Assembly (NCBI GenBank): GCA_013239625.1
Contig: MU057073.1
Span: forward strand, 605,426-669,425
DNA from: Lama guanicoe
Taxonomy: Eukaryota
Length of the DNA: 64,000 bases
Direction: 5' to 3'
The position numbers and the translations under genes are program-made. Shown piece after piece: positions 8,201-11,200 of the stretch. Every line of letters begins with the position of its first letter. Position 1 is the stretch's first letter. Below the pieces are notes generated by a model. It made no database searches. It saw only the letters and a program-made list of their open reading frames with translations, and was not told where the DNA came from.

Positions 8201-11200
8201 ACGGGCTCAAGAGGCAGGAGGAGGAGATGATGGACTTCCGGTCGGGCTCGCCCAGCGAGAACTCGGGAGCCGAGGACATGGAGGTGTCTCTGGCCAAGCC
8301 CAAGCACCGCGTGGTGAGGCCCGTCCCCCTCCCCGGAGGGGCTCTACGGTCAAGGGTCCCCATGGGCTGGCGCAGGAGGACCTCGGCCTTCTGGGTCCCC
8401 ACACTGCCTGACTCTAGCACAGGCCGACCACCTGGGTCGGAAGCGAGGGAGGGTCACCAGACCCGGAGGCCCAGGTGCTGTCACTCCCACCATCCCCTCA
8501 AACCCCGGGGCTCCGAGTTGGGGCACGTGGCCTTGCGATCTCCTACGAGCCCAGACCCCCACGGGCCCCACCTGTGCTCAGCCCCGAGGCCAGCCGTGGT
8601 GGCCCCGGGCCTCTGTCAGCCCCGCTGCCCCCTGACCTGGTGCCTGTCTGCTGCCCTCAGACCATGAATGAGTTTGAGTACCTGAAGCTGCTAGGCAAGG
8701 GCACCTTTGGGAAGGTGATCCTGGTGAAGGAGAAGGCCACCGGCCGCTACTACGCCATGAAGATCTTGAAGAAGGAGGTCATTGTGGCCAAGGTAGGGGC
8801 AGGGCCGGGGCGGGGCCGGGGGCCCCAGGTGGAAGCGGGCCACTCACCGGGCCCTGTCCTCCAGGACGAGGTGGCCCACACACTCACAGAGAACCGTGTC
8901 CTCCAGAACTCCCGGCACCCCTTCCTGACGGTGAGTCCCTCCTGGGCGGGCTCACACGGGCCAGCCTCTGCAGCTCGGACATCCTGCGTGCTCAGAACTC
9001 GGGCCGGCGGTCGCGGGGGGTGCTGTGTGTGCTGCCGCTGGTGCACAGAAGGCCACGCCAGCAGGGTCCCTGTCCTGGGGGACCTTGGCCCAGGGAGGGT
9101 GTGTGGAACAGCAAGGAATTAGCGAGAATTAGTCTGCCTCTCTGCGGGGCTCGGCCAGCTCTGCTCCCGGGCGGTGGGAGCAGCTCGTCAGCATTTGGGT
9201 GGATGAGGGTCAGGACTTGGGTCCCGAGTGCCTGGGGCTGGCCTCTGGGGTCTTGTCCCCAGGGCTGCCCAACGGGCTATCCCCTCTACTTAGGTCAGCG
9301 TCCTCGCTCCAGGGGACGGCTTGGCCCAAAGCAGGGGCAGAGCAGAGAAGCGGTCACACTTGGGGCAGTCTTGCTCCTATGACAGTTTCTCAAGAGAGAC
9401 GTCCGCCGTATTTGAGAGCAGGCGCCTTTGCTGCCCAGACTCGCTCATTTGCCTGTTTTGCCCTTCGTTCCGTCTGTCCGGCTGGACTGGGAGGGAAAGA
9501 CACGCTCTGGCAGGCCCTCCACCCTTCAGTGGGTCCTGTCTCAGACGCCACGTTGAGCTCTGCACGTCCAGCTGGCCCGACCGTGTCCAGCCTCGTGTGG
9601 GTCTCTGTGGGGACAGGGGTGGCAGGGGATCTGAGCGCTGGGGAGGGTCCGCAGCCCGAGGCCTGCAGCTGGTCTCTCGTGCGTGTCTCTGTGAATGGGC
9701 TGGTGACCAGGCCAGCCCTGCAGGGCAGCCTCACAGGGTCACCAGGACCTGCCAGCTTCCAAGACCTTGACTCACCCCCAGACCTCGGCCTTGGCCTGTG
9801 GCCGGGTGGTGGTTCCAGCTCTGCTCCCCTCGCAGGCCCTGAAGTACTCCTTCCAGACCCATGATCGCCTGTGCTTCGTCATGGAGTATGCCAATGGCGG
9901 TGAGGTAGGGCCGCATCCTGGGCTGGGGTCTCTGCCCGTGAGCCTGGCCCCCAGGGCCCCCGCCCCCGCGCTGGGCTGGGGTCTCTGCCCATGAGCCCGG
10001 CCCCCAGGGCCCCCGCCCCCGCGCTGGGCTGTGGTCTCTGCCCGTGGCCCGGCCCCCAGGGCCCCTGCTCAGGCTCCCGTCCTGCAGCTCTTCTTCCACC
10101 TGTCCCGGGAGCGGGTGTTCCCCGAGGACCGGGCGCGCTTCTACGGCGCCGAGATCGTGTCGGCGCTGGACTACCTGCACTCGGAGAAGAACGTGGTGTA
10201 CCGGGACCTCAAGGTGCGGCGCAGCCTGGGGTGGCGGGGCCGGGGCACGGGGAGGGCGGGCTGACACGGAGGCCGCCTCCCGCAGCTGGAGAACCTCATG
10301 CTGGACAAGGACGGGCACATCAAGATCACCGACTTCGGGCTGTGCAAGGAGGGCATCAAGGACGGCGCCACCATGAAGACCTTCTGTGGGAGGCCCGAGT
10401 ACCTGGCCCCCGAGGTGCGCGCCTGCCCGTCCCCCTGACTCCCGCGCCCCGAACCCCCGCCCGCCCCCACTGTCCTCCCAGGCGCCCATGTGGCAGCGCC
10501 CCGTGAGCGTGCCCCTCGCCCCCAGGTGCTGGAGGACAACGACTACGGNNNNNNNNNNNNNNNNNNNNNNNNNNNNNNNNNNNNNNNNNNNNNNNNNNNN
10601 NNNNNNNNNNNNNNNNNNNNNNNNNNNNNNNNNNNNNNNNNNNNNNNNNNNNNNNNNNNNNNNNNNNNNNNNNNNNNNNNGCTCGGCCCTGAGGCCAAGT
10701 CCCTGCTCTCGGGGCTGCTCAAGAAGGACCCCAGGCAGCGGTGAGCCCTGCCCCGGGCTGGCATGCGGCCAGTGGCCTGTCCCTGACACCCCCAGGGCCT
10801 GGCCAGCAGTCCCCACTCGTGGCCGGGGTGATGTCCTTGGTCCTGGCTGGCACAGGCCGAGGAGCCCCTCATCTGCTCAGGGAGACCCGGCCCTGCCAGC
10901 AGCCCCTGCCCACCGGTGTCCTGCCAGGGACCGGGGCCATGCTGTCCGGTGCTGCGCCCGACCTCAGCCAGTGGGAGGAGGGGCCTGAGGCCTGGCGGGG
11001 CGAGGGGGCAGGTGGGATGGGGTGGGGGCGGCACTGTCACGTGGCCTCCCTCCCCCCACAGGCTCGGCGGGGGCTCCGAGGACGCCAAGGAAATCATGCA
11101 GCACCGCTTCTTTGCCAGCATTGTGTGGCAGGACGTGTACGAGAAGAAGGTGGGAGGGGCCGTGCACACCTGTGCACACACACACCCAGCCGTTCACACC

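Follow-up and report, generated by a model that had tools for sequence, protein, structure and literature searches.

Arginine at AKT1 codon 312 in a Lama guanicoe genome assembly is most likely an assembly artefact

Introduction

Does the arginine that a Lama guanicoe genome assembly places in the P+1 loop of AKT1 belong to the animal, or did it enter with the consensus sequence? The codon lies within a stretch of 64,000 nucleotides (assembly GCA_013239625.1, contig MU057073.1, positions 605,426 to 669,425 of the forward strand; hereafter the window), at the position of the kinase referred to as APE-8. Ser or Thr is reported to occupy APE-8 in 335 (95%) of the human non-tyrosine kinases (bioRxiv 10.64898/2026.02.19.706771). 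An active Ser/Thr kinase is expected to carry one of these two residues here, but the assembly has Arg. The original prediction, made from the window sequence, offered a loss-of-function allele, a remarkable lineage change or a base-calling error as explanations. We find that the arginine at codon 312 most likely reflects an assembly artefact, the gene itself being an ordinary AKT1; if so, it would give a false signal of 'rapid evolution' or 'loss of function' of AKT1 in comparative scans that use this assembly.

The assembly encodes arginine at codon 312

The codon is indeed AGG, and window positions 10379-10402 translate as TFCGRPEY. Summing the exon sizes (1443 nt, or 480 codons and a stop) places it at codon 312, and in the five alignments shown between the 43 residues of its exon and AKT1 entries in the PDB it is the sole difference, with Thr in the PDB chains. 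The corresponding locus in the animal's own genome assembly is identical to the window everywhere outside the window's N run, showing that AGG is really in the assembly and ruling out a slip in cutting the window. The same comparison removes the assembly gap that had been assumed about 155 nt downstream, since no N occurs at that place in the own-genome locus; the exon that carries the N run has the length expected from four of four full-length orthologues, and its 215 nt contain no stop.

Table 1. Features of the AKT1 locus in window coordinates.
Feature	Position	Strand	Remarks
AKT1 coding exon 2 (PH domain)	5126-5254	+	exon 1 lies upstream of the window
AKT1 coding exons 3-6 with introns: remaining PH domain, linker, glycine loop, catalytic Lys	7857-8930	+	
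AKT1 coding exons 7 and 8	9836-10213	+	9836-9904 and 10088-10213; exon 8 ends in the catalytic loop, YRDLK
Intron 5' of the codon-312 exon	10214-10285	+	83% GC
AKT1 coding exon 9 of 13, residues 277-319: DFG, activation loop, T308 (10379-10381), APE	10286-10414	+	129 nt; AG/GT ends; 1 difference in 43 residues from PDB AKT1 chains
AKT1 codon 312, APE-8 position of the P+1 loop	10391-10393	+	AGG (Arg), suspect base 10392, at G000:C9058:615817 in the own genome; Thr in 368 of 368 homologues that cover the site
Intron 3' of the codon-312 exon	10415-10525	+	80% GC
AKT1 coding exon 10	10526-10740	+	215 nt, open frame, no stop; compared with cattle, pig and deer differs only at 373 and 389, both common to camelid proteins
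AKT1 coding exons 11-13 (hydrophobic motif, stop)	11062-13024	+	11062-11149, 12579-12681 and 12945-13024
Siva family exons, downstream of AKT1	20811-23883	-	
Adenylosuccinate synthetase family exons, downstream of AKT1	29608-47067	-	

The arginine lies in the true AKT1 gene

The window contains twelve AKT1 coding exons; the first is upstream of it and was located in the own-genome assembly (15 of its 15 residues are those of alpaca, camel and cattle). All 13 are open and have canonical AG/GT splice ends. Together they place a PH domain, an AGC kinase domain and a C-terminal hydrophobic motif in one frame of 480 codons, as expected of AKT1, and the exon translations match alpaca AKT1. The T308 and S473 sites, the glycine loop with the catalytic Lys, the xRD-x-K catalytic loop, and the DFG and APE motifs can all be read in these translations.

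The best PDB matches of the codon-312 exon are RAC-alpha, and the activation loop reads IKDGA in the window, compared with ISDGA and ITDAA at two other loci, so that the window is AKT1-type and separate AKT2 and AKT3 loci exist, the paralogues being named from their loop sequences. Searching the own genome at the protein and DNA levels found a single AKT1-type locus, followed by AKT2, AKT3 and an AKT3-type retrocopy, all with Thr at the position in question. Among the 11 other loci found, 10 match the motif pattern and all 10 have Thr; the remaining one (L012) falls outside the pattern. Siva and adenylosuccinate synthetase genes adjoin AKT1 here, as expected of an AKT1 orthologue from the gene order of human 14q32, with its SIVA1 and ADSS1.

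A rival reading is a decaying duplicate or pseudogene at this position, with the working AKT1 elsewhere, and the genome does contain an AKT retrocopy. That copy is AKT3-type, however, and searches of the own genome and of all 13 exons revealed no further lesions and no second AKT1 copy. With one AKT1-type locus, open exons with canonical splice ends, and the Siva and adenylosuccinate synthetase neighbours, we regard a pseudogene as extremely improbable; the gene here is the true AKT1, intact, present once and among its usual neighbours.

Several related sequences were seen elsewhere in the own genome. The AKT3-type retrocopy (L004; G000:C1724:4237930-4241058) is intronless with an open frame of 511 codons, about 479 from the first Met as counted by eye, and keeps its frame despite many substitutions, some of them in the activation loop. 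Contig C8876 carries, about 0.6 Mb from AKT3, a second gene for adenylosuccinate synthetase, and a Siva-like copy with internal stops and without introns (G000:C12522:191342-191820) is probably a processed pseudogene.

Threonine 312 in camelid and other AKT1 proteins

Thr312 is present both in alpaca AKT1 (XP_072819950.1 / XP_031535303.1) and in the protein common to Bactrian camel and dromedary (XP_074220996.1 / XP_031310313.1), these three being the species from which named camelid AKT1 proteins were compared. The window and alpaca proteins are equal at 406 of 409 aligned residues, a count that leaves out codons split by introns. Two of the three differences stem from the database isoform, which lacks 33 residues after position 320, and the third is T312R. 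Alpaca thus has Thr where the window has Arg and equals it at all other comparable residues, so that codon 312 is, as far as the aligned residues allow, the only real difference between the two, and the proposed lineage change finds no support in the three species. Camelus AKT1 also has Thr312 and differs from window and alpaca at three other positions, with A, L and M in place of T101, M117 and V461; the window gene is therefore of the alpaca type and not of the Camelus type, which marks its animal as a South American camelid.

Five residues by which the window differs from both cattle and pig (S31, T36, D133, G373 and R389) provide an internal control. All five are common to alpaca and camel, whereas R312 is common to none of alpaca, camel, cattle and pig. 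We had considered T36 and D133 as possible further errors, and rejected this as both occur in the alpaca and camel proteins.

Thr is found at position 312 in all 368 proteins that cover the site among the 376 best-listed homologues (eight do not include it), a set made up of the best 120 of 902, 120 of 319 and 150 of 6820 matches together with the members of one cluster. As the query sequences had Arg at this position, any exact match with Arg would have headed the list; only Thr was found among the matches listed. An exact look-up in a collection of 15 billion proteins found no copy of the Arg-bearing exon frame, which is a weak test. None of 391 proteins is a short genomic reading frame ending in the tail that the window's intron would encode, and ACG is thus the presumed camelid codon; a 30-base intron probe gave 0 matches in metagenome contigs.

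The camelid-shared changes N31S, I36T, E133D, S373G and K389R lie at window positions 5170, 5185, 8275, 10685 and 10733. I36T (5185-5187) affects a nearly invariant position of the PH domain and is a genuine change in camelids: among 111 AKT1-like proteins 99 have Ile, one has Met and nine have no residue at this position, and Thr occurs only in alpaca and camel. Taking presumed ancestral codons and the shortest path, four of the five changes would run from A/T to G/C, which would fit GC-biased gene conversion. For R312 we discarded such conversion, which should not give a C-to-G change. The 33 residues that the 447-aa database isoforms of AKT1 lack (the alpaca and Camelus proteins used here, and those of several whales) directly follow the APE motif, and their loss would break the kinase C-lobe.

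Predicted consequences of arginine at position 312

Thr312 of AKT1 is taken to be the equivalent of PKA Thr201, a correspondence for which our literature search found no paper. Its proposed contact with the catalytic-loop Asp and Lys agrees with the hydroxyl bonds described for this position (bioRxiv 10.64898/2026.02.19.706771). The further proposal that the Thr is needed for phosphotransfer is stronger than mutagenesis of AKT1 suggests: with the substitution T312Y, phosphorylation of T308, binding of PDK1 and kinase activity were almost eliminated, but T312A kept phosphorylation of T308 and was more active than T312Y (PMC3358304), indicating that bulk matters and not only the loss of the hydroxyl. 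T312 is also an O-GlcNAc site (PMC3358304; reviewed in PMC9526305). These engineered proteins carry substitutions of the same residue, whereas T312R is not among the mutants of that study, and its effect is extrapolated from them. Arg is bulky and charged, resembling the bulky T312Y, and we predict that T312R, if real, would cause strong loss of function and would likely cripple the kinase.

A rare natural change at the same codon, T312I, is reported in human AKT1 as a dbSNP entry and one tumour mutation (PMC7042250, PMC10381612); it differs from T312R in species and residue, and its classification as damaging is an in silico call. Akt1-null mice are described as partly viable and partly non-viable or growth-retarded (PMC11606119), which suggests that a heterozygous carrier of a damaged copy is possible and that fixation is unlikely.

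Sequencing runs across the region

Over window positions 9000-10540, the 14 best genomic runs (four organism labels, six studies) each contain 0.98 of 154 sampled words. This corresponds to three missing words, and a single differing base is expected to remove 3.2; a share of 1.00 was not reached by any of the 24 runs listed. The result is as expected if other animals have a single base different from the window, in the simplest case 10392, although the share gives no position for the missing words, and another site or the 53-bp repeat in an intron could also explain it. Of these 14 runs, 12 carry a flag as possible sources, and run contigs drop rare variants. The six RNA runs (shares 0.05-0.21) were left out. 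Over the narrower interval 10345-10545, four genomic runs, one per organism label and from four studies, returned 0 contigs in four of four cases, possibly an effect of filtering. The repeat is a tandem array of 2.8 copies with 94% matches at 9918-10065, and takes up most of the intron between AKT1 exons 7 and 8.

These data bear on whether the change could be fixed or common in a single South American camelid species or population, with AKT1 activity altered or lost. The named proteins compared come only from alpaca, Bactrian camel and dromedary, genuine AKT1 changes at conserved sites do occur in camelids (T36, for example), and a paper on the camel genome describes AKT as rapidly diverging, in a passage that names no sites (PMC3514880). 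However, the runs under all four organism labels stand at 0.98, where a fixed allele should give 1.00, the site-covering homologues among the best-listed matches uniformly have Thr, and there is no second change relative to alpaca of the kind that would mark relaxed selection. The papers found on selection in South American camelids do not name AKT1 in their main texts, and their supplements could list genes. We consider a fixed or common change very improbable. Somewhat less remote, and still quite improbable, is a real T312R segregating in one such population, with viable carriers of a kinase-impaired AKT1 that has also lost the T312 O-GlcNAc site. Either form, segregating or fixed, would stand out as a naturally occurring AKT1 hypomorph affecting an O-GlcNAc residue, and the segregating one would provide a usable large-animal model of reduced AKT1 signalling, but the data argue against it.

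A private allele is harder to separate from an error. Here T312R would be real, rare and probably heterozygous in the one assembled animal, and would have been kept by the haploid consensus; Arg would do away with the bonds that the hydroxyl makes to Asp274 and Lys276 and leave the substrate groove crowded, giving a weak or dead kinase masked by the normal copy. All of the data fit this as well as they fit an error, since other animals have Thr either way, human T312I exists, and the partial viability of Akt1-null mice makes a carrier plausible. The inferred ACG is moreover a CpG site, but a CpG would more often yield ATG than AGG. None of the runs listed contains all of the words, including the 12 flagged as possible sources, and our literature search found no paper that contains both 'T312R' and 'Akt'. 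We think a private allele unlikely, if still worth entertaining; it would represent one damaged copy in one animal and be of modest interest.

A probable consensus miscall at position 10392

The reading that we favour is that AGG is a single miscalled base and that the animal's gene really encodes Thr, and we hold this with considerable confidence. As originally pointed out, AGG is one base from ACG, and this is the only Thr codon at that distance, so one C-to-G miscall suffices; the true codon would be ACG and the protein an ordinary AKT1. Per base, consensus errors in GC-rich DNA are far commoner than variants that damage an invariant catalytic residue, and it is mainly these prior odds, reasoned and not computed, that favour a miscall and weigh against a private allele. 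The base-calling error put forward in the original prediction therefore stands as the best reading, but the N gap given as a reason for it does not, as the own-genome locus has no gap. Counting against a miscall, the region around codon 312 is otherwise clean and gap-free, with no sign of poor local quality.

A C-to-G miscall may have arisen from thin or biased coverage of an exon that lies between two introns of 80-83% GC. Sequence-specific errors in Illumina data are reported to arise after GGC (PMC3141275). Position 10392 resembles this pattern in lying directly 3' of GGC on the minus strand, in equalling the preceding base and in its high-GC surroundings, although the platform used for this assembly may differ. 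Such contexts are common, with nine of the 129 exon positions lying directly after GGC on one strand and 62 of 129 within 10 bases of it, and the GGC context supports a miscall at 10392 weakly.
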